Position numbers and translations under genes: made by a program. Shown here one piece after another: positions 2,155-50,501 of a stretch of 50,501 nucleotides of DNA. Source of the stretch: a virus; the IMG/VR virus record IMGVR_UViG_3300045988_110337, one strand, 5' to 3'. The notes beneath the pieces are model-generated. The model was not told the DNA's origin. It searched no databases and worked only from the letters and a program-made list of their open reading frames with translations. Every line of letters starts with the position of its first letter. Within the stretch, counting starts at the first letter, position 1.

Positions 2155-2396
2155 TGTCTTGTTCCTTTCTTTTCGGCTGTCGGAGCTTGTGACCGTCTGC
2201 CGGGCTGCATTAACGGGATTTCTCCCGCCACTCTGCTATATTTCTACGTGCTCGGCGATGTAAATAAAAGTTTGACCTTTGTGCACTTCCAAGATGATAA
2301 AATGTGTCCAATCGATTTTAATTTAGCTTTCCGCGACCCCTTGCGGGGTTTCGGCTGGTTGCCGACCAGCCATCATCAGGCGGAGTTTAGACTAGT

Positions 2397-4795: not shown

Positions 4796-6422
4796 TAGGC
4801 GTTATCTTGACGTAGCGGAAAATATTCTTTCTCACATCAAAGCCGAGCCTGAGAACATGAAACATTATACGGCTATGTATTCGGTGCTGTCTTCGATGAA
4901 TAGCTGTGCGGAAAAGTGGCGGTATTCGGAGGTTTTGAAGAGATATTGCACCGAGCGAATTATACAAAATAAATCGAAAGACGCAAGTTCTCTTTTTAAG
5001 GCTGTGCTTTTGCTTGAAGCGCAGGGATTAAGGCTTGACAGCTATATGCAGTATATAGAGCTTCAGCGAGAGCCGGAGAAAAGATTCTGGATTCCGCGAA
5101 GAAAGCAGCTCGAGCCTGTATGCCGCGCAATGCAAAAACTTGTGGACGGAGAACTTGACATATTATCTATATCTGTTCCGCCCGGTTGCGGCAAAAGCAC
5201 GCTTGAAATTTTCCTGCATTCGATGATGATAGGCGCGTTTCCCGACAGCTGTTCCCTTGCTTCGGGACATTCGGGAACGCTTACTAACTCAATATATGAC
5301 GGCGTAAACAGCATTCTTTCAGACCCTGATTATTTATGGCACGACGTGTACCCTGCCGCAGGCACGATTATAACCAATGCAAAGGAACAGACAATAGACC
5401 TCGGCAAGAAACACCGCTTTTCGTCTCTTACCTGCCGTGCTATAGGTGCTTCCCTTACAGGTGCTACGCGTTGTGAAAAGCTTCTGACCGCCGATGACCT
5501 TGTGTCGGGTATTGAGGAAGCATTGAGCATAGACCGTCTTGACAAGCTCTGGACGGCTTACACAAACGATTTGAAGTCAAGAAAGAAGCTGAATTGTAAG
5601 GAACTGCACATTGCTACAAGATGGTCGGTGCATGACCCTATAGGGAGACTGCAAACAATGTACGCGGATTCTCCGAAAGCTCAGTTTCTCGTAATGCCTG
5701 CGGTTGACGAGGACGGCGAAAGCAATTTCAATTACCGCTATGGTGTCGGCTTTGATAAGGCGTACTTCGAGGACATGAAAAACAACCTCGACGATTGTTC
5801 ATGGCGGGCTTTGTTTATGAATCAGCCGATAGAGCGCGAGGGACTTCTCTACAACGAGGACGAACTCAGACGTTATTTTGAACTTCCATCGGATTCGCCG
5901 GACGCTGTTATATCTGTGTGTGACACAAAGGACAAAGGGGCGGACTACTGTGTAATGCCTATTGCTTACCAGTACGGCAATGACTTCTACATCGAAGAAA
6001 TAATCTGCGACAACAGTAATCCCGAAATAGTTGAAACAAGGCTAGTTGAGGTTCTTTTACGGCACAAAGTCAAATTGAGCCGCTTTGAATCAAACTCTGC
6101 GGGCGGAAAAATCGCGGAAAAGGTTCAAAAAGAGGTAAAATCGCGCGGCGGAATCACAAGGATTACTACAAAATATTCGACAGCAAACAAGGCTACGCGA
6201 ATTATAGTTGATTCTCCGTTTGTCAAAGAGCATTTCCTATTCAAAGATAACAGCATTATAAAGAACAACAAAGAGTATAAACGCGCTCTCGGTATGCTTT
6301 GCAGTTATACTATGGCGGGAAGAAACGCACATGACGATGTACCCGACGCATTCTCAATGCTTTCAGACTTCATTCAATCATTTGAGACGCAGACGGTAAG
6401 ATTAATACAAAGACCTTATTGA
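4752..6422 (+). CDS. terL: Terminase large subunit
   Basis: Walker A PPGCGKST; ATRWSVHDPIG; nuclease-domain motifs VCDTKDKGADY and HDDVPDAFSM. Confidence 0.9.
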   Translation: MEALQAEIMAGEHTDRRYLDVAENILSHIKAEPENMKHYTAMYSVLSSMNSCAEKWRYSEVLKRYCTERIIQNKSKDASSLFKAVLLLEAQGLRLDSYMQYIELQREPEKRFWIPRRKQLEPVCRAMQKLVDGELDILSISVPPGCGKSTLEIFLHSMMIGAFPDSCSLASGHSGTLTNSIYDGVNSILSDPDYLWHDVYPAAGTIITNAKEQTIDLGKKHRFSSLTCRAIGASLTGATRCEKLLTADDLVSGIEEALSIDRLDKLWTAYTNDLKSRKKLNCKELHIATRWSVHDPIGRLQTMYADSPKAQFLVMPAVDEDGESNFNYRYGVGFDKAYFEDMKNNLDDCSWRALFMNQPIEREGLLYNEDELRRYFELPSDSPDAVISVCDTKDKGADYCVMPIAYQYGNDFYIEEIICDNSNPEIVETRLVEVLLRHKVKLSRFESNSAGGKIAEKVQKEVKSRGGITRITTKYSTANKATRIIVDSPFVKEHFLFKDNSIIKNNKEYKRALGMLCSYTMAGRNAHDDVPDAFSMLSDFIQSFETQTVRLIQRPY

Positions 6423-6429
6423 GGTGGCT

Positions 6430-6606
6430 ATGGAAGAAGAGAAACACGCGCACCGTCTCAAGTACGTCAAAGAAGACGCGCTTATTATAATCAACGAGAT
6501 TTTAGAACGTGGTAATGACGTTAAAATAAAGAAATCTCGCGAAGAGGTCACTATACTTGAAATAACCGCTTCGAGAAAAGCTAAATACACTATAAAAACG
6601 CTGTAA
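6430..6606 (+). CDS. Hypothetical small protein
   Basis: Short ORF between terL and portal, GAGG RBS. Confidence 0.35.
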   Translation: MEEEKHAHRLKYVKEDALIIINEILERGNDVKIKKSREEVTILEITASRKAKYTIKTL

Positions 6607-6644
6607 CAATCGGGTTGCAGTAAGAGCCGATAGGGGCTATTCGT

Positions 6645-8168
6645 ATGGAAAACATACGGGTAGTTCCTATTTTTGTTTACACGGAGGTTTTTCTTGTGCT
6701 TGAAAATGATATTGTTCGCCTTGCTACTTGTGATAGCCTTCATGGTCGGCGAAAGATACTAACGAACAAACAAAAAATAACCAGCGACAATGTTGTGTTC
6801 GTGCTTGGAAATTCACTCGGCTTCGACAGCGCAAATGTCGCGGAAATAAATTACTTATATGACGTTTATCGCGGAATAATGGATATCCGCTATAAAGACA
6901 AATCCGTGAGACCCGACAACAACAACAAGGTCACTATCAACCTTCCGAACAAGATAGTTACTTTTAAATCCTCGTTCTTCCTAAGCTCTCCCATTCAGTA
7001 TGTAGCGGCTAACGGAAAAGAGGATATATCCGACAAGGTAGCTTATCTGAACGTTCTTATGACTTCCGAAGGAAAAGAATCAAAGGACAAAGAGTGCTCG
7101 GACTGGATGCACATCTGCGGAGTTGAACCGAGGATGGTTCTTCCCGACCCCGACAACGAGAAAGACGGCAGTCCCGCAGCTCTTTATTCCCTTGACCCGA
7201 GAGAAGCGTTTGTTATCTACTCTTCGGGCATTGGCAGAAAACCTCTCGCGGGTGTACTGAAACAGTACGACGAGGACGATAACCTCATTTACTACGTTTA
7301 TGTGCCGGAAGGAAGATACACCGTAAAGGGTAATGACGTTGTAGACTGGCTTGCTTACGACTTCGGGCGCGTTCCGATAGTGGAATATCCGCTGAATGAA
7401 GCTCGTTTGGGAGCGTTTGAGACGGTTCTCTCGCCTATCAACATGATAAACACTCTTGAGTCCGCTCGTGTTGACAATGTTGTTGACTTTGTAAACGCCT
7501 ATGACGTGTTCCAAAACTGCGAAATCGACGAGAACACATACAAGGAACTTGCAAGGGGCGGTCAGTGTATCTGCATCAGAAGCGGTCAGGGAACGGAAGC
7601 AAAGGTTTACCGCATATCCTCTGAAATCTCGCAGACGGGCGTTCAGACGGAAATAGACGCGCTGTATGACTACATTGATGAAATAACGGGTATGCCGACA
7701 AGAGCCGGAGATTCAGCCGCAGCAGACACGGGCATGGGAACGAGATTCCGCAACGGTTGGCAGGATGCTTCCGCGAGAGCTAACGACACTGAAAAGCTAT
7801 TTGCGCGTTCAGAAAGAGAGATTCTGAAGCTGATTCTCAAAATTTACAAAGACAAGGGCATTCTCGACCTTGACCCGACTGACGTTAAGATTCAGTTTAC
7901 CCGCGAAAACCTCACCGACATTCAATCGAAAGCACAGGTTCTTTGCGAACTGCTCAACAATGAAAAGGTTCATCCGCGCGACGCTTACGACATTTCCGGT
8001 TTGTTTACAGATGTAGAAAATGCATATCAGCGCGGTATGGAGTGGTATGAAGAAGCACAGTCCGAGCTTGAAAACAGCTTAGAAAAGGAGCTTGAGAATG
8101 CAAGAACGTTACATAACGACGGACAGAGCGATAGAAATACTGCGGAAGAAGACAATACGGCGGTTTGA
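6645..8168 (+). CDS. Portal protein (SPP1 gp6-like). The true start may be GTG 6696, which follows a GGAGG
   Basis: Size, position after terL, and portal-like core. Confidence 0.8.
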   Translation: MENIRVVPIFVYTEVFLVLENDIVRLATCDSLHGRRKILTNKQKITSDNVVFVLGNSLGFDSANVAEINYLYDVYRGIMDIRYKDKSVRPDNNNKVTINLPNKIVTFKSSFFLSSPIQYVAANGKEDISDKVAYLNVLMTSEGKESKDKECSDWMHICGVEPRMVLPDPDNEKDGSPAALYSLDPREAFVIYSSGIGRKPLAGVLKQYDEDDNLIYYVYVPEGRYTVKGNDVVDWLAYDFGRVPIVEYPLNEARLGAFETVLSPINMINTLESARVDNVVDFVNAYDVFQNCEIDENTYKELARGGQCICIRSGQGTEAKVYRISSEISQTGVQTEIDALYDYIDEITGMPTRAGDSAAADTGMGTRFRNGWQDASARANDTEKLFARSEREILKLILKIYKDKGILDLDPTDVKIQFTRENLTDIQSKAQVLCELLNNEKVHPRDAYDISGLFTDVENAYQRGMEWYEEAQSELENSLEKELENARTLHNDGQSDRNTAEEDNTAV

Positions 8169-27964: not shown

Positions 27965-28563
27965 AAAAGCTGAATCCAAACTGGCTGCTCATGATGTCGA
28001 GTAGCAAGGACAAGCGCGGCGAATACGGCGGCTACGACAGACACGAGCGAGACTATGACCGCAGACCGCGCGATTATGACAGATACGATAGGCGCGAGGA
28101 CAGATACCCTGATTATGACCGCCGCCGTCAGCCTGACTATGACGAGTACGACGGCTACGGCAAGCGCGACTACTACGGCGAGCACGACATGAGAGACCGC
28201 CGCGATTATGACGGACGTGAGCGTGAGAGCTACGGCAAACGTGGGAAAAAGCACGACAAGTTTACCCGTGAGGACGCGGACGAGTGGACGGAGAAAATGA
28301 AAAACGCCGACGGCTCGACCGGGAGACACTGGAATTTTGAGCAGACGGAGCAAGTGAGACGGCAGCACGGCTATGACTGCGACCCTGCTGAATTTTACGC
28401 TGCGATTAACATGATGTACTCCGATTACTACAAAATAGGCAAGGAGTTTAATCTCAACTCTGTTGACTTCTATGCGGCAATGGCTCACGCTTTCCTTGAC
28501 GATGAGGATGCGGAAGAAGATAAACTTGCAAAATACTATGAATGCATAGTTGAGAAACATTGA
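27961..28563 (+). CDS. Protein with an R/D/Y low-complexity N-terminal half and a globular C-terminal domain
   Basis: YDRHERDYDRRPRDYDRYDRREDRYPDYDRRRQPDYDEYDGYGKRDYY... Confidence 0.55.
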   Translation: MKKLNPNWLLMMSSSKDKRGEYGGYDRHERDYDRRPRDYDRYDRREDRYPDYDRRRQPDYDEYDGYGKRDYYGEHDMRDRRDYDGRERESYGKRGKKHDKFTREDADEWTEKMKNADGSTGRHWNFEQTEQVRRQHGYDCDPAEFYAAINMMYSDYYKIGKEFNLNSVDFYAAMAHAFLDDEDAEEDKLAKYYECIVEKH

Positions 28564-28593
28564 CAAATGTTGTGTAAACATGAGTAAATTTTA

Positions 28594-28628
28594 AAAGAGG
28601 ATAGTTGTAAAACTACCCTCTTTTATTG
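28594..28628 (+). terminator. Rho-independent terminator ending the rightward late/cargo unit
   Basis: AAGAGGATAG...CTACCCTCTT followed by TTATTG. Confidence 0.6.
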
Positions 28629-28724
28629 TTTATTCTTCTGCAAGTTGACTTAATCGTTAAGGACATGAGCAATAAACACGCTTGTCTTTATAAGTGGTGC
28701 TATAATAGAACTTAAGAATAGCAA

Positions 28725-28760
28725 GAAAAAAACTGTAAAGAATGGGCGATTCTTTACAGT
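28725..28760 (-). terminator. Terminator (12-bp perfect stem) with the U tract on the minus strand
   Basis: ACTGTAAAGAAT-GGGCG-ATTCTTTACAGT; A7 on the + strand (28725-28731) gives T7 on the minus strand. Confidence 0.6.
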
Positions 28761-28806
28761 TGGTTGCGGAACGTGATTGAGATACATTAATTTCGTTTCC
28801 TTCAAC

Positions 28807-28835
28807 AATATACACTATTTAGCGTGGTTTGTCAA
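28807..28835 (-). promoter_or_regulatory. Leftward promoter TTGACA-17-TATATT, which could drive an sRNA of about 70 nt ending at 28725-28760
   Basis: Minus strand TTGACA (28835-28830), 17-nt spacer, TATATT (28812-28807). Confidence 0.4.
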
Positions 28836-29001
28836 CAGGTTTGTCAATCTTTCTTTAAATTTACAAATACTATTCATCAAATCATTTTCGACATTTGCCT
28901 AAAATGCACTTCCCTGTCAATGTGTTTGTAAATTGGTTTATCAATGCGTTGAAAATGTTGATTTAGACGTTTGTCAATATTTAGATAACGTCTTGACAAG
29001 G
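28826..29001. repeat. Cluster of T(T/G)TGTCAA / TTATCAA boxes (five direct, one inverted)
   Basis: GGTTTGTCAA at 28826 and 28838, CTGTCAA 28913, TTTATCAA 28937, TTTGTCAA 28970, inverted TTGACAAG 28993. Confidence 0.5.
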
Positions 29002-29021
29002 CATGACAGATAGTTTAAAAT
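28993..29021 (+). promoter_or_regulatory. Rightward promoter TTGACA-17-TAAAAT facing the origin and rep
   Basis: TTGACA 28993-28998; TAAAAT 29016-29021. Confidence 0.5.
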
Positions 29022-29039
29022 TACATTATGGAAAATATT

Positions 29040-29190
29040 TTCTCTTTTTTTCTGTTTACTGACCGCGTATTCGCTTTTGAGTTTTCAACAGACAAAATTT
29101 ATGCGCTTTAGTTCGTGAAACAACATACTTATTACTTTTTATAAGAGATACTTATTATTTTACTATTTTTATATAATTAAAGTAGGGAAA
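29040..29190. other. AT-rich region (candidate DNA unwinding element) next to the iterons
   Basis: Visibly AT-rich, e.g. TTATTACTTTTTATAAGAGATACTTATTATTTTACTATTTTTATATAATTAAAG. Confidence 0.45.
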
Positions 29191-29194
29191 TGTT

Positions 29195-29302
29195 AAACAG
29201 GACATTTGGTAACGATAAACAGGACATTTGGTAACGGATAGCAGGACATTTGGTAACTGTAAAACAGGACACTTAGTAACGACAAACAGGACATTTGGTA
29301 AC
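29195..29302. repeat. Five 22-bp iterons (core CAGGACATTTGGTAAC)
   Basis: Cores at 29198, 29220, 29242, 29265 (2 mismatches) and 29287; spacing 22/22/23/22. Confidence 0.85.
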
Positions 29303-29343
29303 TGTAAAACCGAGAAAACACATGGGAAAATTGTTCTTTTGCA

Positions 29344-29389
29344 GTTTTCAACAATGTTTTCAACATAGTTTTGCACAGAGTTTTCAACA
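29344..29389. promoter_or_regulatory. Four GTTTTCAACA boxes at exact 12-bp phasing just upstream of rep (operator candidate)
   Basis: 29344, 29356, 29368 (variant GTTTTGCACA), 29380; one further copy at 29081. Confidence 0.5.
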
Positions 29390-29403
29390 TGAAGGGAGTA
29401 ACC

Positions 29404-30096
29404 ATGAAAAATAGCGATAAAAATATTAATAATTTAGTTGTCAAAAAGAACGAACTAATTCAAAAGTCAAGATACGGAATGACAACACAGGAGCAAAAAG
29501 TCATATTGTATACGATAAGCAAGGTAAAACCCGATGATAAAGAACTTTATGAGTATGATTTCAATCTGCAAGATATGTGTGAAGCACTTGGAATTACTCA
29601 AAACGGCAAGAATTACAAGAATCTCCGTGAAACGCTTCAATCCATACGCGACAAGTCATTCTGGATAGTGGACGGAAATGTAAGAAAACTATGCGCATGG
29701 ATTTCGGGTGCGGAAATATACGAAAATGAATCGCGGGTTAGGATTCAGCTTGACAAGCGGCTGGCACCTTATTTGCTTGAACTCAAAGAATCGTATACGG
29801 CATATCAGCTTCAAACCGTGTTAAACATGGAATCGAAACACACTATACGTTTGTACGAGATACTTAAAAGCTATGACAATATAGGCGAGTACACCGTTTC
29901 TGTTGAAAATTTGAAAACGCTTATGCAAATAGGCGGTTACTCGGATTTTATTGATTTTCGCAAGCGCGTAATCGACACTGCCGTTGACGAAATTAACGCC
30001 GTTAGTGATTTGCGTGTAGCCTATGAGCCGAAACGGACGGGAAGGAGTATAACTCACATTAAATTCTCAATCACAAAAGCAAGGAGTAATCCATGA
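29404..30096 (+). CDS. Rep_3-family (RepB-like) theta-replication initiator
   Basis: LVVKKNELIQKSRYGMTTQEQKVILYTISKV... and ...SKHTIRLYEILKSY... are typical of iteron-plasmid initiators; iterons lie immediately upstream. Confidence 0.8.
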   Translation: MKNSDKNINNLVVKKNELIQKSRYGMTTQEQKVILYTISKVKPDDKELYEYDFNLQDMCEALGITQNGKNYKNLRETLQSIRDKSFWIVDGNVRKLCAWISGAEIYENESRVRIQLDKRLAPYLLELKESYTAYQLQTVLNMESKHTIRLYEILKSYDNIGEYTVSVENLKTLMQIGGYSDFIDFRKRVIDTAVDEINAVSDLRVAYEPKRTGRSITHIKFSITKARSNP

Positions 30097-30710
30097 AATA
30101 CCTAACAATAGCCGAATTCGCCGACAGAGCCGGAGTGACAAGTCAATCGGTATATCAAAGAATTAAGCGGAACGGTCTTGAAGAATATATAGTGACAAGC
30201 GAAGACGGAGTAAAAAGAATCTCCGAGGATGCATTGAAACTATATAGCAACTCAAAAAAACACGAAGCAGTTGCGGAAAACGTGTGTGACGCACCACAGG
30301 ATTGTGAGAGCGAAGAAAACAAAGGACACGAGTGTTTGAACGCAGAAACAATAAAGAGCCTACAGGAGACTGTAGAAGCTCTCAGAAACGTAATTGACAG
30401 ACAGGCAGACGAACTGAAGCAGAAGACGGAAATGCTTGACGAACGTGATAAGCAGATTTCAGACTACGCCAGCAAGTTTGCCGAACTCGCTCACAACGCG
30501 TTACAAACCGCTGTGCAGGCGCAAACGCTCCATGCGGTCAGTGAATCCGACAAGTTTGTTAATGCGCCTCAGAACGTCTCCCAGAACGCCACAGTTGGTA
30601 AAAAAACTGTTGCAGACGAGAATGACGTTGAATCAACAAACGAATCCGATGTTGAACAAGATAACAAGCGTAAGTTGAATTGGTTTGCAAAGCTGTTTGG
30701 TAAACATTAA
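30093..30710 (+). CDS. MerR/excisionase-type HTH protein with a long coiled-coil tail
   Basis: MKYLTIAEFADRAGVTSQSVYQRIKRNGL...; translationally coupled to rep. Confidence 0.5.
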   Translation: MKYLTIAEFADRAGVTSQSVYQRIKRNGLEEYIVTSEDGVKRISEDALKLYSNSKKHEAVAENVCDAPQDCESEENKGHECLNAETIKSLQETVEALRNVIDRQADELKQKTEMLDERDKQISDYASKFAELAHNALQTAVQAQTLHAVSESDKFVNAPQNVSQNATVGKKTVADENDVESTNESDVEQDNKRKLNWFAKLFGKH

Positions 30711-30749
30711 ACGTGACAAATAATATGTTACTAAACGTTGACAGATATG

Positions 30750-30778
30750 TTGACAAACGCGTTTAAACGTGCTATAAT
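30750..30778 (+). promoter_or_regulatory. Consensus promoter TTGACA-17-TGcTATAAT with no ORF downstream
   Basis: TTGACA 30750-30755, 17-nt spacer, TATAAT 30773-30778 preceded by TGC. Confidence 0.7.
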
Positions 30779-30784
30779 ATTGTT

Positions 30785-31175
30785 GTGGAACAATGAACTC
30801 TGGTTGTTCTTCGTATTGAAACTCCTTTCTTTTAAAATATCCGAGCAACGTGGATGATTCCGCTGTGCAACCGCTCGGACATCGCGCCTATACGTTCAAC
30901 GGCAGAAGATACCATAACGTGTACAACGGCGGTTCAACTCCGCAAGGCGCGAATTGACATGACTACGTTCCTTTCGGTCTTGTTTTTCGTTTTTGGCGAC
31001 GGTTCGTAAGGACTGTCGCGCACGGGAACGGCGAATCGGTTGTATGGCGGTCAAAAGGCTGCCTTTGAGGGTTCAAAACCCTCCGTTTCCTTTCGCGACT
31101 TCTGTCATGTTCCTCCTTTGTTTATGAATTTGCTGTGTAAAAGAGCACTCTTCTGGATGGGGTGCTCTTTTACGT
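30785..31175 (+). ncRNA. Candidate structured ncRNA of about 390 nt, class unknown
   Basis: Bounded by the consensus promoter and the 31139-31171 terminator. No track ORF (60 aa or longer) lies within 30849-31546 on either strand. Contains T-arm-like hairpins and long-range pairings. Confidence 0.45.
31139..31171. terminator. Bidirectional terminator hairpin
   Basis: AAAAGAGCAC-13 nt-GTGCTCTTTT. Confidence 0.65.
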
Positions 31176-31354
31176 TGTTAAATGTTTGTCAACATTGAAT
31201 GTGCGCCGATAAGTGCATAAATTTGTCGAATGTAAAACTAATATATTTTTGTATCTGATTTTAATACGGAATATTAAACTCGGCTATTGCCTTCTCTCGA
31301 AAAGCATGTTACACTTGAATTAGAAAATATTTCCAACAAAGAAGGGACAGACAG

Positions 31355-31471
31355 ATGAAGAATTGCAGATTTGAGTTAGCGAATATCGTAAGCAAACTAA
31401 ACGACAAAGGCATAATCCTTCTTTTGCGCTTCGCGAAACTTCTCGAGAAAAATAAAAATTTTCTCAAATAA
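31355..31471 (+). CDS. Possible 38-aa ORF
   Basis: ATG after GAAGGGA; MKNCRFELANIVSKLNDKGIILLLRFAKLLEKNKNFLK. Confidence 0.25.
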   Translation: MKNCRFELANIVSKLNDKGIILLLRFAKLLEKNKNFLK

Positions 31472-31494
31472 ACACATTTTCTTTACAAAAGCTA

Positions 31495-31523
31495 TTTACA
31501 AACAAGCGTTCGTGTGATATAAT
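31495..31523 (+). promoter_or_regulatory. Promoter TTTACA-17-TGaTATAAT
   Basis: TTTACA 31495-31500; TATAAT 31518-31523. Confidence 0.55.
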
Positions 31524-31553
31524 CGACAGCAGAATAAAGAAGGGAAGTGCAAA

Positions 31554-31718
31554 ATGAAGGAGCAAATTATAACCGAGATAGCCGAGATACTACAAAGCTA
31601 CTCCGAGGAACGGCTAAGGCTGATTGTACGACTTGTAACAGTTCTCGCCACAGCGACCGACAAAACAGCGGGACTTTCGGAGAAAGCCGTACTAAGCATT
31701 GCAAGACACGCAAAATAG
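31554..31718 (+). CDS. Possible 54-aa ORF
   Basis: ATG after GAAGGGAAG; MKEQIITEIAEILQSYSEERLRLIVRLVTVLATATDK...; followed by a terminator. Confidence 0.4.
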   Translation: MKEQIITEIAEILQSYSEERLRLIVRLVTVLATATDKTAGLSEKAVLSIARHAK

Positions 31719-31720
31719 AA

Positions 31721-31747
31721 AAGAGCAGGGAAGTGATTCCTTGCTCT
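31721..31747. terminator. Bidirectional terminator; the 27-nt sequence is identical to 45230-45256
   Basis: AAGAGCAGGGAAGTGATTCCTTGCTCT present at both sites. Confidence 0.75.
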
Positions 31748-31753
31748 CTTTTT

Positions 31754-31948
31754 TCATTCGGCTTTTCTTCCACAAATTTTAGCCCAGTGTTTTACGAACC
31801 ATGCTTTAAATTCGGGACAATCAACATTTGAACAACGGCGTGCTCTGAAAAGCTGATTGCCTTGATATTTGCATTTTCCGCGTCCGCATGGATAGTCGGG
31901 GAATAGTTTTTGCATCTGTTCTATCGTTGGCAGTTCTTTCATATGCAC
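31754..31948 (-). CDS. Small Cys-rich protein
   Basis: Last ORF of the leftward early operon. Confidence 0.5.
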   Translation of the reverse strand: MHMKELPTIEQMQKLFPDYPCGRGKCKYQGNQLFRARRCSNVDCPEFKAWFVKHWAKICGRKAE

Positions 31949-36764: not shown

Positions 36765-37484
36765 TCATTCGTCCTCCTGTAAAATGTAGTCTCCCCACTG
36801 CTCCGCGAATGCTTTCGCGATTCCAGGGAAGGTTTTGCTTCGTGTTTTTTCCCGGTCTGTGTTTCGCGTTTCTTCCCATGTTCTGTTTTTGCCGTTGCTG
36901 TACTTGCCGTATAGCTTTCCTAAATCGGGTTCATCGGTGCATTTTGGCACAAGCGAGGGAAGATTCTGCGTCCACAGGCAGGTTGTTTTCTTTGTGTAGT
37001 TTTCCGTATCGTTTTCACCGTCCGAAAACATATACGGATGTATTATTTGATTCGGCTTGCGGTACGCCGTATTCATAAAGCCTATCGGATTCTCTATTGC
37101 CTTATGCGGAATGTCGGCAAGAGCGAAATACATAAAGAATATCGCCGCTTTCGCTCTGTCTTCCCATCGCCGCACAACTTTTTCGGAGGGGGTACATCTG
37201 AGCGAAAACGCACGTGTCGCGACATTGCTTAGATATGTACACGGCGGGTGCGCAATCAGCAAGTCCCACTTCGATATGTGGTGTATCTGTCCGTCCATTG
37301 TGGTTATTTCTCCCGCGTCAAGTGCTTTCACCGCATCTCCGAGTATGTGATATTCGGGATGCCCGCCGGAACACTCCTGTATATCGCAGGAGAAAGCGTT
37401 AAATCCTCTCGCGCGGAACGCCATGCACACGCGCTGTGATTCTTCGCAAGCCACAAGGACGTTTATTTTCGTCGGGTCTTTCAT
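36765..37484 (-). CDS. Short phage-type C5 cytosine DNA methyltransferase-like protein
   Basis: VLVACEESQ..., AHPPCTYLS (PC motif), AIENP (ENV-like), and a C-terminal TFPGIAKAF. Confidence 0.55.
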   Translation of the reverse strand: MKDPTKINVLVACEESQRVCMAFRARGFNAFSCDIQECSGGHPEYHILGDAVKALDAGEITTMDGQIHHISKWDLLIAHPPCTYLSNVATRAFSLRCTPSEKVVRRWEDRAKAAIFFMYFALADIPHKAIENPIGFMNTAYRKPNQIIHPYMFSDGENDTENYTKKTTCLWTQNLPSLVPKCTDEPDLGKLYGKYSNGKNRTWEETRNTDREKTRSKTFPGIAKAFAEQWGDYILQEDE

Positions 37485-40695: not shown

Positions 40696-40926
40696 TTAGT
40701 ACATTGTCGGGAGGATAATGCTTGCCCATCTCTCAACGTCTTTGATTTCGTAATCTCTTTTTCCGTCGCTTGTGATTCCCCAGCCGTCGTATTTTGCGGA
40801 GTAGTTCGCTACGGTTGCTATGCCGCCGGAAGTCCAAATGAGGTAATCGCCGGACACCTTCGGCTTTTTGCTCGGGAGATTCCGGGAGGTGAGTGCAAAT
40901 TCGGTGAGTTCTATGTTATCAGTCAT
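40696..40926 (-). CDS. Hypothetical protein
   Basis: ORF in the operon. Confidence 0.4.
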   Translation of the reverse strand: MTDNIELTEFALTSRNLPSKKPKVSGDYLIWTSGGIATVANYSAKYDGWGITSDGKRDYEIKDVERWASIILPTMY

Positions 40927-41545
40927 GGTATTTTGTCCTTTCCAATGTGTCGAGCAGTCTGTTTCTGCTCGAGTTAAATTCGTTTTCGGTAAGTCTGTTT
41001 GTTTCCGCTGTTTGTGGCATTTGCTTTGTTACAGTGCCGAGCAGTGCCTTGATTTCGGACGGCGTTTCGTTGTCGAATCTCACTCTGTCACGGATGATGC
41101 CTATCTGTTTGAGGAACTGCCCGTGAGTGACGGTGTTAAACGTATCGGTGTCAACCTGTGAAAGTTCTCGGAGAGTGTTCGGTGTACCGAGGTATCTTTG
41201 CAGTTCGGGAGGAAGTTTCGCGAATTCCTCTTTTGCTCCGTAGTAGCCGTTCGACACTGCCGCCTTCAGCTGAGACCACAGTTCTTCGTCCGTCTTTTCT
41301 CCCGTCGCCGCTCTGCGCATTTCTCGTATCTGCGTCTTGATGTCCGCTATCGTCGGAGGAAAGCCTGTGTGTTCTTCAATGACCTTGTACAGAGCGATTT
41401 TGACAACGTTCACGTCCTCTTCGCGAAACATATCGCACCACACAGATACGGTGTCCTCTGCGTCCGTTTTGCTCATCTTCGAGTAAAACCCGGGATATGC
41501 GACTTTGAGAATTTTCAGCGTTGCTATTACGTCTGTTCTGTCCAT
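40919..41545 (-). CDS. Helicase-loader-like protein (SPP1 G39P-like N-terminal domain)
   Basis: LKILKVAYPGFY...VSVWCDMFREEDVNVVKIAL...GFPPTIADI matches my recollection of G39P. Confidence 0.45.
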   Translation of the reverse strand: MDRTDVIATLKILKVAYPGFYSKMSKTDAEDTVSVWCDMFREEDVNVVKIALYKVIEEHTGFPPTIADIKTQIREMRRAATGEKTDEELWSQLKAAVSNGYYGAKEEFAKLPPELQRYLGTPNTLRELSQVDTDTFNTVTHGQFLKQIGIIRDRVRFDNETPSEIKALLGTVTKQMPQTAETNRLTENEFNSSRNRLLDTLERTKYHD

Positions 41546-42375
41546 CGGCTTTCTCTTTTCGCTTTTTCTTTTTCAAGTTCCTCGTTGAGGTAATTTAGAA
41601 ATTCATCACCTCCCGATTTTTCGCTGCAAGTTGGTGCGGCTGATACGGTGTCGTATATGTCCTGCCATCGCCACTGGTAGAAGTATGTCGAGCCTGCAAG
41701 TATGTACTGTTCGCTCGTGCGCTTTGCGGCTATGTAGTCCTTGTACCTCCTGATACCGTCGGCTATAGTCTCGTCGGTCACTCCGGCTGCTATAGCTCTC
41801 TGATAGCTCTCAAAAGCGTTCTTTTTTCCGTTTTTCTTAGGGTATTCTGCCCATAAGGCTTCAAAACGCTCTCCAATCGTCGGTTTTCTGTGTTTAACCT
41901 CGGATTCCGGCGGGTCAATGGGTTCAAAGCCTTCGAAGAAGGGTATCTGCTCGTCCTCACACGCGCCCGCGCACACGCCCGTTAGTGCTTCTTCTCTTTT
42001 CTCTTCAAGAGGGGGATTATAGGGGGAGTTAATAAGGGGGTATGGGGGAAAAGAAGAGGGGGAACAAGGGGGAGACGCTTCTCTTTTCTCTTCTTGAATC
42101 ACTGTGACTTGTTTGTGACTATCACTGTGACCGTCACTGTGACTATCACTGTGATTTAACAGTGACGTCTCTGTGACTTTGTTTCTTGCCTTTCGGACTA
42201 TCAGCTTGTGATACTCCGCTCTTTTGCGGTCGACATAAATGTCGGTCGCAATATACTGCAATTTTCCTGTTATCTCGGGTTCGCTCTCGTCTCTCAGAAT
42301 CGCCATCACAAGTGTTTTGAAGTCCTTCGGAGGGAGCATATCGAGCTTAGCTATCCATCTGTCGGGGATGTTCAC
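41527..42375 (-). CDS. Replisome organizer / replication initiator candidate containing an internal iteron array
   Basis: Located upstream of the loader; internal CACTGTGAC repeats encode HSDSHSDGHSDSH. Confidence 0.45.
   Translation of the reverse strand: MNIPDRWIAKLDMLPPKDFKTLVMAILRDESEPEITGKLQYIATDIYVDRKRAEYHKLIVRKARNKVTETSLLNHSDSHSDGHSDSHKQVTVIQEEKREASPPCSPSSFPPYPLINSPYNPPLEEKREEALTGVCAGACEDEQIPFFEGFEPIDPPESEVKHRKPTIGERFEALWAEYPKKNGKKNAFESYQRAIAAGVTDETIADGIRRYKDYIAAKRTSEQYILAGSTYFYQWRWQDIYDTVSAAPTCSEKSGGDEFLNYLNEELEKEKAKRESRWTEQT
42011..42072 (+). other. Six G5 tracts within 62 nt (G-quadruplex-capable, + strand)
   Basis: GGGGG at 42011, 42022, 42036, 42044, 42058, 42068. Confidence 0.8.
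42100..42177. repeat. Seven CACTGTGAC-type iterons at 11-12 bp phasing (lytic origin candidate)
   Basis: Starts at 42100, 42111, 42123, 42135, 42147, 42158, 42169. Confidence 0.6.
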
Positions 42376-44708: not shown

Positions 44709-44737
44709 ATTATATCACCGCGTGTTGTGTTTGTCAA
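44709..44737 (-). promoter_or_regulatory. Early leftward consensus promoter TTGACA-17-TATAAT
   Basis: Minus strand TTGACA (44737-44732), TATAAT (44714-44709). Confidence 0.7.
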
Positions 44738-44775
44738 CACTATTTAAATAAAAAAATAAAAAAATTTTGCTCATT

Positions 44776-44790
44776 TGTGTTGACAACACA
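44776..44790. promoter_or_regulatory. 15-bp palindromic operator TGTGTTGACAACACA overlapping the -35 of the repressor promoter
   Basis: Read directly; related half-sites GTGTTG 44722-44727 and CAACAC 44735-44740. Confidence 0.55.
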
Positions 44791-44808
44791 TTAAATAAAG
44801 AGTATAAT
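44780..44808 (+). promoter_or_regulatory. Rightward consensus promoter TTGACA-17-TATAAT for the repressor gene
   Basis: TTGACA 44780-44785; TATAAT 44803-44808. Confidence 0.7.
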
Positions 44809-44830
44809 ATTACACGAAGGAGGTGATGAT

Positions 44831-45217
44831 ATGATAGCTGAGAATATAAGAACTTTGAGAAAAGAACTCGGCTTATCACAAACGGAATTCGCCAAAAGAA
44901 TTTACGTCTCGCGCGATGTCATAAGCAATATCGAGTTGAAAAGAGTTGAACCAACTGAGCTAATAGTAAATGTCATATGCGTTGAATTCGGCGTAAATGA
45001 ATCTTGGCTGAAAACTGGCGAAGGCAATATGTTCCAATTGAAAGTCGCTGAAGACAAGATATTTGATGCATTCGGCAAACTGGCTCATGAAGCGGATTCT
45101 TCGTTTGTTAAACAGTTTGTGGCGGCACTTGCAGAACTTACGCCTGAAGAGTGGAAGACAATAGAAAACTTTGCTTGGAAAGTAGTCGAACGTCAGAAAG
45201 AAGCAGACGATAAGTAA
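44831..45217 (+). CDS. XRE/CI-type repressor
   Basis: IRTLRKELGLSQTEFAKRIYVSRDVISNIELKRVEP HTH; divergent from the early operon. Confidence 0.8.
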   Translation: MIAENIRTLRKELGLSQTEFAKRIYVSRDVISNIELKRVEPTELIVNVICVEFGVNESWLKTGEGNMFQLKVAEDKIFDAFGKLAHEADSSFVKQFVAALAELTPEEWKTIENFAWKVVERQKEADDK

Positions 45218-45229
45218 AGCAAATAAAAA

Positions 45230-45256
45230 AAGAGCAGGGAAGTGATTCCTTGCTCT
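45230..45256. terminator. Bidirectional terminator; the 27-nt sequence is identical to 31721-31747
   Basis: AAGAGCAGGGAAGTGATTCCTTGCTCT flanked by A7 and T4. Confidence 0.75.
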
Positions 45257-45273
45257 TTTGAGTTGATTTGATT

Positions 45274-46315: not shown

Positions 46316-46939
46316 TTATTTGATTTCTTCCCAGGTGAATCTGCCTTTACGGGTTTTGCCGCCTGTATGGTTAATGCAATGTGAAAGTGCTCCGCTGTTA
46401 ATGCGGAAAAAATCAGCAGCCTCTCTAACCGAGCGGAAAACTCTACCACTCTCAACATGGCGAACCGCCTTGCGTTGATTCCCGTAATCCTTGGGCACGT
46501 ATCCGTTGACCAATGCGTCTTTGATGCGTTTTTCTGCGTAAGAAAATCCTTTTGTCTCAGCCCAAACCTTGATTGAACCGCGTGGAATGCCCGACAACTC
46601 TGCCCATGAAGAGCACGAAAGCCTTTTTCCGTCGACGGTAAAGAACAACGTCTTTCGGCGGTTATTTATGTTCGCTTGACGCGTTATCCACCGGCAATTT
46701 TCGGGGCAATAATTTCCGTCGTTGTCTACGCGGTCGAGGTCAAGACCTTGTTGATAGCCATTTGTCAACGCCCATTCGCAAAACGGCTCGAACGCTTGCC
46801 ATTCCGCGCAAACCGAGATGCCTCTTGCTCCATAATTTTTGTAAGCATGACATTTAGGGTTCTGTGTCCGCTGTTTCATGGCTTTCCATGCCCAGTAAAG
46901 AGACTTATTCCTTTGTCTTAACGTACTCATTGTTCCCAC
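46316..46939 (-). CDS. HNH homing-endonuclease-like protein
   Basis: LDLDRVDNDGNYCPENCRWITRQANINN HNH core, plus C-terminal DNA-binding-like repeats. Confidence 0.7.
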   Translation of the reverse strand: MGTMSTLRQRNKSLYWAWKAMKQRTQNPKCHAYKNYGARGISVCAEWQAFEPFCEWALTNGYQQGLDLDRVDNDGNYCPENCRWITRQANINNRRKTLFFTVDGKRLSCSSWAELSGIPRGSIKVWAETKGFSYAEKRIKDALVNGYVPKDYGNQRKAVRHVESGRVFRSVREAADFFRINSGALSHCINHTGGKTRKGRFTWEEIK

Positions 46940-49273: not shown

Positions 49274-49310
49274 GATTGTACTCCTTTATTTTCCTTATTT
49301 TTGATACCTC

Positions 49311-49324
49311 CCTCCGAAGAGGGA
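49311..49324 (-). other. Intercistronic hairpin with UUCG tetraloop
   Basis: Minus strand CCCTC-TTCG-GAGGG. Confidence 0.6.
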
Positions 49325-49369
49325 ACGCACCGAGCCTGAATCCTATTTAGAGCCGCTCGGTCGGCTTGA

Positions 49370-50402: not shown

Positions 50403-50501
50403 ATTTTTTTGTACCTATAGACAAAACTGCAACAAATGCGGATTTTTTGGGCATTCCATGTTTTCTCGCCGACTGCATACGAGTGCCGCTCGTATGGCAA
50501 A
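50403..50501. repeat. Terminal direct repeat copy 2 (identical to 1-99)
   Basis: Same 99 bases as window start. Confidence 0.9.

Follow-up and report, generated by a model that had tools for sequence, protein, structure and literature searches.

In coliphage P1, lysogeny depends on a plasmid origin (oriR/RepA) made up of iterons with an initiator and flanked by DnaA boxes and lytic growth on a distinct origin, with a repressor deciding between the two, and the phage also bears a second iteron array (incA) for copy control, the ParAB-parS partition system, the phd/doc addiction module, and Cre-lox dimer resolution. Phage-plasmids account for 5–7% of the phages and plasmids in RefSeq and are frequent in Clostridia (PMC7969092), and P1-like elements are described as having converted from one to the other of the phage-plasmid and integrative prophage states (PMC10879196). 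Burkholderia phage KS14, which is P2-like and has a RepB initiator, was demonstrated by experiment to be a plasmid prophage, whereas the related phages KS5 and KL3 encode integrases and do integrate (PMC3091744). Phage phiSemix9P1 of C. difficile was described as extrachromosomal DNA in lysogenic cells and carries parA (PMC6127314), and about 20% of the cluster A actinophages lack an integration module, the plasmid functions of mycophages being mostly partition systems (PMC7969092). The phage-plasmid lifestyle itself is thus already known from KS14, phiSemix9P1, and P1. Here, we describe the 50,501-nucleotide DNA of IMG/VR virus record IMGVR_UViG_3300045988_110337, a phage of the human gut (the whole stretch is referred to as the window), in which a cassette at 28561–31871, built around a Rep_3-family initiator gene, is probably a self-contained iteron-type theta replicon of plasmid ancestry that replaces the integration module, so that a temperate, siphovirus-like phage would be kept as a circular plasmid. 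What the locus adds to the described systems is an unusually clean three-way cassette exchange, four Rep/iteron specificities, a recurrent gut lineage, and no detectable partition system.

When compared to these systems, the window resembles KS14, likewise a temperate phage with a tail, in encoding a repressor and an initiator of the Rep_3 family (gp37 of KS14; 28% identity to the window Rep over the C-terminal half, E 4e-13), but KS14 is a myovirus of a Gram-negative host and carries a small serine invertase. Iterons and a slot-for-slot exchange with sharp breakpoints belong to the window lineage and do not appear in the part of the KS14 account available (PMC3091744). The phage phiSemix9P1, which is grouped with phage HGP05, is close to the window in genome size (56.6 kb), infects a Clostridia host, and has a RepB-family protein with 26.5% identity over 96% (E 8e-12); it differs by the presence of parA, by a toxin locus, and by the lack of detectable DNA similarity. 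With P1, the window has in common two replicons in one phage under repressor control, the RepA sequence lying outside this comparison, whereas counterparts of incA, ParAB-parS, phd/doc, and Cre-lox were not detected in the window. The Rep_3 iteron plasmids, such as those with F RepE, Acinetobacter RepM/ORF2, staphylococcal RepB, or the small plasmids of Butyrivibrio and of uncultured bacteria, share the initiator fold family, 22-bp iterons located approximately 100–200 bp ahead of rep (the core in the staphylococcal plasmids being almost that of the window), an AT-rich block, and a downstream helix-turn-helix (HTH) partner related to NF038291. However, the best plasmid Rep is only 42% identical, all NCBIfam matches fall below cutoff, and the window replicon lies inside a 50-kb phage without mobilisation genes. 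Likewise, the cluster A mycobacteriophages swap their integration module for plasmid-maintenance functions within one lineage, but their swap brings in parABS partition, whereas that of the window lineage brings in an initiator and an origin, with no partition system detected.

The rep gene (29404–30096, plus strand) encodes a Rep_3-family initiator of 230 amino acids (aa) composed of WH1 and WH2 domains. A first-pass annotation made from the sequence alone had proposed a Rep_3-like initiator here, and the hidden Markov model search agreed with it for both domains, with PF01051 (Rep3_N) matching residues 12–155 (E 2.7e-35, 122 bits, cutoff 22.4) and PF21205 (Rep3_C) matching residues 166–223 (E 4.5e-19, 68.9 bits, cutoff 21.1). 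In a PDB search, the protein aligned over its full length with the solved F-plasmid RepE (1rep, E 6e-14); it also matched PHROG 4402 (replication initiation protein) and, below the curated cutoff, the NCBIfam models RepM, its best match there, and RepE. Homologs were found in more than 5000 plasmid records against 23 phage records, KS14 and phiSemix9P1 being among the latter, and the nearest plasmid Reps (38–42% identical) are encoded on 3–8 kb plasmids of uncultured bacteria and Butyrivibrio. The exact protein is recorded in 47 collection blocks and is 100% conserved in at least 24 contigs from independent samples, with the origin intact in 21 sequence variants.

The start codon of the next gene, orf205 (30093–30710, plus strand; 205 aa), overlaps the rep stop codon (ATGA), and a homolog accompanies Rep in all four of the Rep types (A to D) described below. 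Members of this family consist of a near-invariant N-terminal HTH with a weak HTH_17/excisionase-type match, a coiled coil, and the invariant motif KFAELAHNALQTAVQAQTLHAVSES, the HTH of the type D homolog being somewhat different. Eleven of 12 members matched NF038291, a "plasmid replication DNA-binding protein" model named for ORF2 of the Acinetobacter plasmid pAB02, whose protein is found with RepM-type Rep_3 initiators; the best E value was 3.6e-07, and all matches stayed under the curated cutoff. Since the best NCBIfam model of Rep is RepM, the rep-orf205 pair looks like a plasmid replicon unit, and Rep_3 together with the iterons would supply the plasmid replication gene of a phage-plasmid. 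A kinship of orf205 with the HTH protein beside the staphylococcal plasmid repB was considered and the two proved unrelated, and a PDB search with the orf205 profile gave no meaningful match. In a distant relative (L160), an orf205 homolog of 39% identity lies directly after, and convergent to, the gene of a DUF7841 protein (L160:50-676 with L160:750-1229), so that the Rep cassette may also occur in inverted orientation; a location on a small plasmid was considered for the most distant homolog, which is found on a truncated phage contig.

Upstream of rep, the window contains five 22-bp iterons (29194–29302, plus strand; core CAGGACATTTGGTAAC; 4.9 copies with a score of 148 by Tandem Repeats Finder, TRF), ending 102 bp before the rep start. 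The five iterons named in the first-pass annotation exceed chance, as the core occurs in five copies within the array (four perfect and one with two mismatches) against 0.28 expected in the whole window, and none of 100 shuffles reached the six matches observed; the sixth, a three-mismatch site at 5263, is probably due to chance. The array keeps a constant position relative to the rep start over 21 distinct type A origin sequences, with a sixth copy in one lineage, and its repeats are 73–76% identical to a 22-bp array (AGTAAAAGGGACATTTTGTAAC) located approximately 120 bp upstream of the annotated RepB gene in nine Staphylococcus plasmids. Directly to the left of the iterons lies an AT-rich block, the presumed DNA unwinding element, whose sequence is conserved over the cassette types; it had been placed at 29040–29190, a slightly too wide range, its core being at about 29100–29190 (GC 22% at 29100–29199 vs. 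46.8% for the genome).

The relatives fall into four Rep types, of which A to C are 53–62% identical and D has a Rep of 223 aa, and each type has its own iteron core while the rest of the origin scaffold is homologous. Type A, that of the window, has five copies of CAGGACATTTGGTAAC at a spacing of 22 bp; type B (locus L030) has two copies of the core AGGGACGTTTGGTTAT spaced by 33 bp; type C (L152) has five copies of the core CCGTACATTTTGTAAC at a spacing of 22–23 bp; and type D (L161) has five copies of the core (C/A)GGACATTTGGTAAC, also spaced by 22–23 bp. This type-specific pairing is the pattern expected of cognate, incompatibility-determining Rep/iteron pairs, and a diversification of specificities is what plasmid incompatibility would select for. 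A replicase exchange has similarly been proposed for P1-like phage-plasmids, "possibly to avoid incompatibility" (PMC10879196).

The organization of the region downstream of the DUF7841 gene was compared among 29 IMG/VR loci fetched by means of the lysin as anchor. Rep_3 and orf205 occupied this position in 10 loci, a 558-aa large serine recombinase (Pfam Resolvase, Recombinase, and Zn_ribbon_recom) in four, and a tyrosine integrase of 349–360 aa followed by a giant polyvalent protein in another four. The left border of the exchangeable segment is the DUF7841 stop (28563) and the right border is the end of the SSB operon. On the left, a serine-integrase relative (L011) is 95.7% identical over 6.6 kb, and homology ends at 28560, approximately at the DUF7841 stop codon; on the right, homology with the integrase-bearing relatives is back at 31872 or 31958, just beyond the SSB stop. 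A second, independent pair, L152 (Rep_3) and L153 (tyrosine integrase), has an identical lysin protein and 97.7% identity over 4.5 kb, and its homology extends as far as the 3′ end of the DUF7841 gene, beyond which the two sequences differ. Given these sharp shared breakpoints and the alternative integrases, the Rep_3 cassette is interchangeable with the integrase cassettes, as one of three occupants of a single bounded slot of approximately 3.3 kb. Rep_3 was also the most frequent occupant, being found in 15 of the 22 SSB-anchored loci with enough flank. Because the cassette sits where close relatives have an integrase, the phage is most likely a free plasmid in its host. The episomal lysogeny postulated in the first-pass annotation thereby gains strong indirect support from the serine and tyrosine integrases in the same slot; we infer the plasmid state, as well as DnaA binding, the role of orf205, and the choice of promoter.

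Regarding the surroundings of the slot, the identical 384-aa lysin of L152 and L153/L154, together with downstream DNA of 97.7% identity, is found on two different virion modules, one siphovirus-like with a DUF6273 tail protein and the other with an SU10-type adaptor and a GDSL lipase, and the late-gene backbones are highly mosaic around the common lysis/lysogeny region. In the slots with a tyrosine integrase (L022:15627-21140, L153 from 15775 onward, and L154 from 15774 onward), the giant polyvalent protein adjoining the integrase has 1,700 to approximately 3,450 aa and carries SNF2 helicase, LPD38, PBECR5, MuF_C, and ART-PolyVal domains.

A second, lytic-type replication module, which had also been noticed at 40.9–42.4 kb, is present at 40919–42375 on the minus strand and comprises a G39P-type loader (40919–41545; PF11417, E 4.8e-14) and a DnaD-like organizer (41527–42375; PHROG 270, E 3.1e-27). 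The organizer gene contains internal 12-bp tandem repeats at 42098–42177 (TRF), which double as coding sequence for a Ser/Asp/His-rich peptide repeat (SDSHSDGHSDSH); these repeats could be an origin, as in SPP1 gene 38, or only a low-complexity repeat of the coding sequence. Contigs of relatives with a tyrosine integrase, which have no Rep_3 within the retrieved stretches, keep the loader (94% identical), the organizer (54–81%), RecT (98%), the dUTPase, and SSB (95–97%). Since the relatives devoid of Rep_3 retain the organizer/G39P-loader/RecT module, Rep_3 is dispensable for lytic replication. The strongest argument for a role of Rep_3 in lysogeny maintenance is that the common module supplies lytic replication while Rep_3 alternates with integrases.

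The CI-type switch reported previously was located at 44709–45259 by Pfam (HTH_19/HTH_3), the PHROG repressor families, and a promoter scan. It is composed of an XRE/CI-like repressor of 128 aa (44831–45217, plus strand), two back-to-back promoters that both show the 12/12 consensus (44737–44709 on the minus strand and 44780–44808 on the plus strand), and a terminator at 45228–45259. Repressor and divergent promoters together have the features of a textbook divergent immunity switch, pointing to temperate regulation. In agreement with the claim that recombinases and transposases are missing, none was found in the complete circle. The Pfam scan covered the six-frame open reading frames (ORFs) of at least 70 aa over the whole window, minus a few short antisense ORFs, and gave no domain of a tyrosine or serine recombinase, DDE transposase, ParA/ParB, ParM, TubZ, or toxin-antitoxin system. 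The PHROGs scan covered 20 ORFs, including in a second pass the ten largest without Pfam annotation, and none belonged to a family of integration, excision, or partition. The phage thus seems to be independent of chromosomal integration, with the caveat, which also applies to the absence of an integrase, that for several ORFs of 187–307 aa, Pfam, PHROGs, and NCBIfam gave either no family at all or one whose function is unknown.

Further elements of the origin are four boxes with a 12-bp phasing between the iterons and the rep ribosome-binding site (29343–29390, plus strand), reading GTTTTCAACA at 29344, 29356, and 29380 and the variant GTTTTGCACA at 29368, and a distal fifth GTTTTCAACA copy (29081–29090, plus strand) on the far side of the AT-rich block. 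All four exact matches of GTTTTCMACA in the 50.5 kb lie inside this origin (0.26 expected; 0 of 100 shuffles), and iterons, AT-rich block, and boxes are significantly non-random and confined to the origin locus. All 21 distinct origin sequences have the distal box, near position −324 relative to the start of rep; in types B, C, and D it reads GTTTTCCACA, a match to TTWTNCACA. The proximal boxes vary from two to four copies among the relatives. Type A boxes take the forms TTTTCAACA and TTTTGCACA and those of types B, C, and D the form TTTTCCACA, the proximal cluster of type D consisting of TTATCAACA three times, TTTTACACA, and AAATCCACA. No form departs from the canonical DnaA box TTATCCACA by more than two mismatches, and the boxes are located on both sides of the AT-rich/iteron core. 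DnaA boxes flanking such a core are the arrangement of P1 oriR and of other iteron plasmids, and host DnaA boxes are a frequent, though not a general, feature of Rep_3 origins.

The first-pass annotation had correctly recognized the four phased boxes and had placed them over the rep promoter and ribosome-binding site, as for an operator. The promoter scan detected no promoter over the proximal boxes, a strong and conserved one being situated upstream at 28993–29021. The boxes have no sequence in common with the iterons and stay alike while Rep and iterons change, and a Rep operator was for these reasons rejected as the leading reading. As the boxes vary around the DnaA-box consensus, sites for host DnaA are likelier than a Rep operator, and we consider this identification somewhat better than an even bet; since only one box in the window fits TTWTNCACA exactly, host DnaA binding is something we infer. 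Alternatively, the boxes could be bound by the conserved HTH of orf205.

The upstream promoter (28993–29021, plus strand; TTGACA-17-TAAAAT, 11/12 consensus) is directed toward rep through the origin, and types B and D have counterpart sites of the form TTGACA-17-TAAAAT or TATAAT. It is accompanied at 28826–28999 by GTTTGTCAA-type boxes, with four direct copies at 28826, 28838, 28935, and 28968 and an inverted TTGACAA at 28993 over the −35 element. The GTTTGTCAA boxes persist in cassettes of types B and C, whereas type D, with its different partner protein, has GTTGAATCAA boxes in their place, a covariation over only two classes that hints at a candidate operator for the HTH partner orf205. The rep gene itself is preceded by the ribosome-binding site GAAGGGAG and starts with the ATG at 29404. 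At the left edge of the cassette, a minus-strand promoter (28807–28835, 11/12) is directed away from the origin, and a hairpin with a 13-bp stem and a T-run (28731–28761) lies approximately 40–75 nt downstream of it, which suggests a short divergent transcript.

Taken as a plasmid replicon, the cassette would function as follows. Rep monomers would bind the five 22-bp iterons via the two winged-helix domains, and host DnaA would bind the distal box beyond the AT-rich block and the four-box cluster beside rep. Rep and DnaA together would then melt the block of 22% GC, and the replisome of the host would be loaded for theta replication. The rep gene and the translationally coupled orf205 would be transcribed from the promoter at 28993–29021, reading through the origin, and orf205 would probably regulate this promoter via the GTTTGTCAA boxes. 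Meanwhile, the CI-like repressor at 44.8 kb would silence the lytic genes, including the organizer/loader module, which on induction would take over replication.

Several observations weigh against a plasmid prophage. The main weakness concerns stable inheritance, as the Pfam six-frame scan and the PHROGs scan of 20 ORFs revealed neither a recombinase for multimer resolution nor genes for partition or a toxin-antitoxin pair; a low-copy plasmid of 50 kb that is stably inherited would rarely lack all of these. A phage packaging by the headful mechanism would give a circular assembly just as readily, and the window encodes a small terminase of the gp3 type. The element is found as a plasmid in no isolate genome, and the sole hit in 185,579 species-representative genomes is a 36.9-kb contig, a close hit without host flanks that was binned in an "uncultured Eubacteriales" metagenome-assembled genome from the Hadza gut; the host could be placed no closer than "uncultured Eubacteriales". 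In addition, the contigs of the serine-integrase relatives (IMGVR_UViG_3300045988_129024, _105776, _072341, and _076231) are partial, and the early regions lie outside what they cover. The element had been expected not to be integrated in host genomes, and indeed it was nowhere seen integrated, no host flanks being observed on Rep-bearing contigs. In the 47 blocks with the exact Rep, the longest carrying contig never exceeded 200 kb, and the ten listed contigs measured 50.5–54.9 kb. Contig size as proof of non-integration was, however, dropped after the shared lysin had served as a control: in no variant, with or without an integrase, does a contig bearing the lysin exceed 84 kb, so phage-sized contigs do not discriminate an episome from an integrated element.

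The missing partition, addiction, and dimer-resolution functions, the circular contigs explained by headful packaging, and the equal contig sizes of Rep_3 and integrase variants would all suit a phage that has lost its integrase and uses the Rep_3 origin as an extra vegetative or early theta-phase origin, or in a transient carrier state (pseudolysogeny), with no stable plasmid inheritance; a few Rep_3 matches in phages not known as temperate, e.g., a Skunavirus, point the same way. We regard this as unlikely, though with a real chance, because the relatives without Rep_3 retain the organizer, loader, RecT, and SSB and do not need it for lytic replication, the cassette fills exactly the integrase slot, the repressor switch is intact, and both the fully conserved Rep (at least 24 contigs from independent samples) and the origin (intact in 21 variants) have been maintained. 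The same occupancy of the slot bears on the idea that a small Rep_3 plasmid recombined into the phage and persists as selfish or neutral cargo without a role in the life cycle. Such an origin would agree with the closest Reps (38–42%) being located on 3–8 kb plasmids of uncultured bacteria and Butyrivibrio, with the resemblance of rep-orf205 to a plasmid gene pair, and with backbones so mosaic that an identical lysin occurs on different structural modules. Yet the borders of the insert are the same as, and as sharp as, those of the integrase cassettes, the Rep_3 phage has no other lysogeny-maintenance gene, four Rep/iteron types are kept in the same slot, and Rep_3 is its commonest occupant (15/22 of the SSB-anchored loci), which makes mere cargo quite improbable.

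Finally, the prophage might integrate via host recombinases, by a CTX-phi-like XerCD route, or via an unrecognised recombinase, with Rep_3 acting only after excision. Room for such an enzyme exists among the several ORFs of 187–307 aa that lack an informative family match, and a tRNA-like element, described below, is found inside the cassette. However, host flanks appear on no contig, an iteron replicon is of no obvious use to an integrated element, and relatives with an integrase also have the tRNA-like element, at a site distant from that gene; we therefore hold integration of this type to be very improbable. A replicon that stands in for the integration module and keeps the phage as a circular plasmid is the reading that we prefer.

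The right half of the cassette contains a candidate structured RNA (30750–31175, plus strand), composed of a promoter at 30750–30778 (TTGACA-17-TATAAT, 12/12, with an upstream TG), approximately 390 nt devoid of ORFs, and a hairpin terminator. The plus-strand fold of the region has z = −4.17, and in 21 distinct homologs, invariant blocks alternate with hairpins of differing sequence in which pairing is kept. Two tRNA-like modules are apparent, the first with a 7-bp acceptor-like stem, a D-like arm, and a T-arm with a TTCAACT loop, and the second with an acceptor-like stem and a T-arm. In the cloverleaf core of the first module (93 nt), 98.8% of the cells are paired, with four compensatory pairs and changes in three helices, and the covariation score is 0.181 vs. 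0.109 for shuffles and at most 0.053 for slid controls; the covariation support is modest because all compensatory changes come from one lineage. Neither Rfam (at gathering thresholds and at E ≤ 1) nor ARAGORN recognised the RNA, and blastn against PLSDB and INPHARED gave no match. The 93-nt module also occurs at another position in six loci without Rep or orf205, three of which are tyrosine-integrase contigs (copies outside the cassette include L053:546-638, L050:5346-5435, L060:6601-6693, and L065:113-202). A function as replication-control RNA was rejected, as relatives with an integrase carry the core at sites remote from a Rep gene; not being exclusive to the Rep cassette, the core is unlikely to have such a role.

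Downstream of the RNA, gene calls in relatives together with the promoter and terminator scan indicated two micro-ORFs on the plus strand (31356–31747), one of 38 aa (31356–31472) and one of 54 aa (31554–31718), with a promoter at 31495–31523 and a terminator at 31722–31747; the 54-aa ORF, the sole micro-ORF scanned, had no match in PHROGs. A 29-bp exact direct repeat (31719–31747 and 45228–45256, 13.5 kb apart) corresponds to the terminator hairpin AAAGAGCAGGGAAGTGATTCCTTGCTCT, found at the end of the 54-aa ORF in the Rep cassette as well as of the CI-like repressor gene; the repeat may represent a common module or serve as a substrate for recombination. It is conceivable, if rather unlikely, that the 3.3-kb unit moves between unrelated backbones as a portable "episomal lysogeny cassette", directly alternative to the integrase cassettes, in which the right half, the RNA and the micro-ORFs, gives stability instead of ParAB or a toxin-antitoxin system. 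If true, the cassette RNA would represent a novel class of structured RNAs that take part in maintaining plasmids or prophages.

When considering the remainder of the genome, bases 1–99 are exactly repeated at 50403–50501, and this 99-bp terminal overlap closes a circle of 50,402 bp (46.8% GC for the window). The same circle was found in independent assemblies with other break points, namely two ENA contigs of 50,521 bp (50,402 + 119; k = 119), the JGI contig measuring 50,501 bp. According to Pfam, the left 28 kb form a late operon with a gp3-type small terminase, the large terminase, an SPP1-type portal, MuF, and a capsid-E protein, accompanied by a 966-aa ORF of tape-measure size, a 1259-aa DUF6273 tail protein, and an M23/NAGPA lysin, so the window contains a complete phage set of packaging, head, tail, and lysis functions. 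The right 18 kb make up the early region on the minus strand and encode SSB, a dUTPase, a methyltransferase, the G39P-type helicase loader, the DnaD-like organizer/initiator, RecT, and a DUF1351 protein. Neither the cassette nor 22 kb of the structural region showed DNA similarity to known phages in INPHARED, which holds no close sequenced relative of this phage, and an exact-match look-up of RecT returned the same phage alone.

The methyltransferase of the early region (36765–37484, minus strand) corresponds to PHROG 757 (E 6.7e-57), and a free-standing HNH endonuclease (46316–46939, minus strand) to PHROG 3377 (E 4.5e-45); relatives carry other inserts in this region, e.g., a PAPS reductase and another HNH endonuclease. 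Three known RNA motifs were also identified. A Pistol ribozyme (49302–49366, minus strand; RF02679, 61 bits vs. a gathering cutoff of 34.5) lies between two acidic ORFs of 298 and 307 aa, a type-P5 twister ribozyme (2180–2237, minus strand; RF02684, 46.9 bits vs. 37.6) is situated just upstream of a 266-aa minus-strand ORF (1354–2154), and a gut-2 RNA motif (6597–6644, plus strand; RF02990, 48.9 bits vs. 39.8) abuts the start of the portal gene at 6645.

The phage-plasmids that have been studied well are mostly those of Proteobacteria, and detailed dissections of phage-plasmids from uncultured gut Clostridia are few. The lineage described here recurs over many metagenome samples, its top lysin cluster having 698 member sequences, and it offers a natural experiment in which near-identical phages differ in the content of one slot, occupied by Rep_3 of at least four types or by a serine or tyrosine integrase. 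Both the trade-offs between episomal and integrated lysogeny and the diversification of replicons driven by incompatibility thereby become directly testable. The segment from the origin through orf205 (approximately 2.2 kb) is a candidate replicon for vectors in gut Firmicutes that are hard to manipulate. Lifestyle prediction tools keyed to the integrase would misclassify this common gut phage as virulent.

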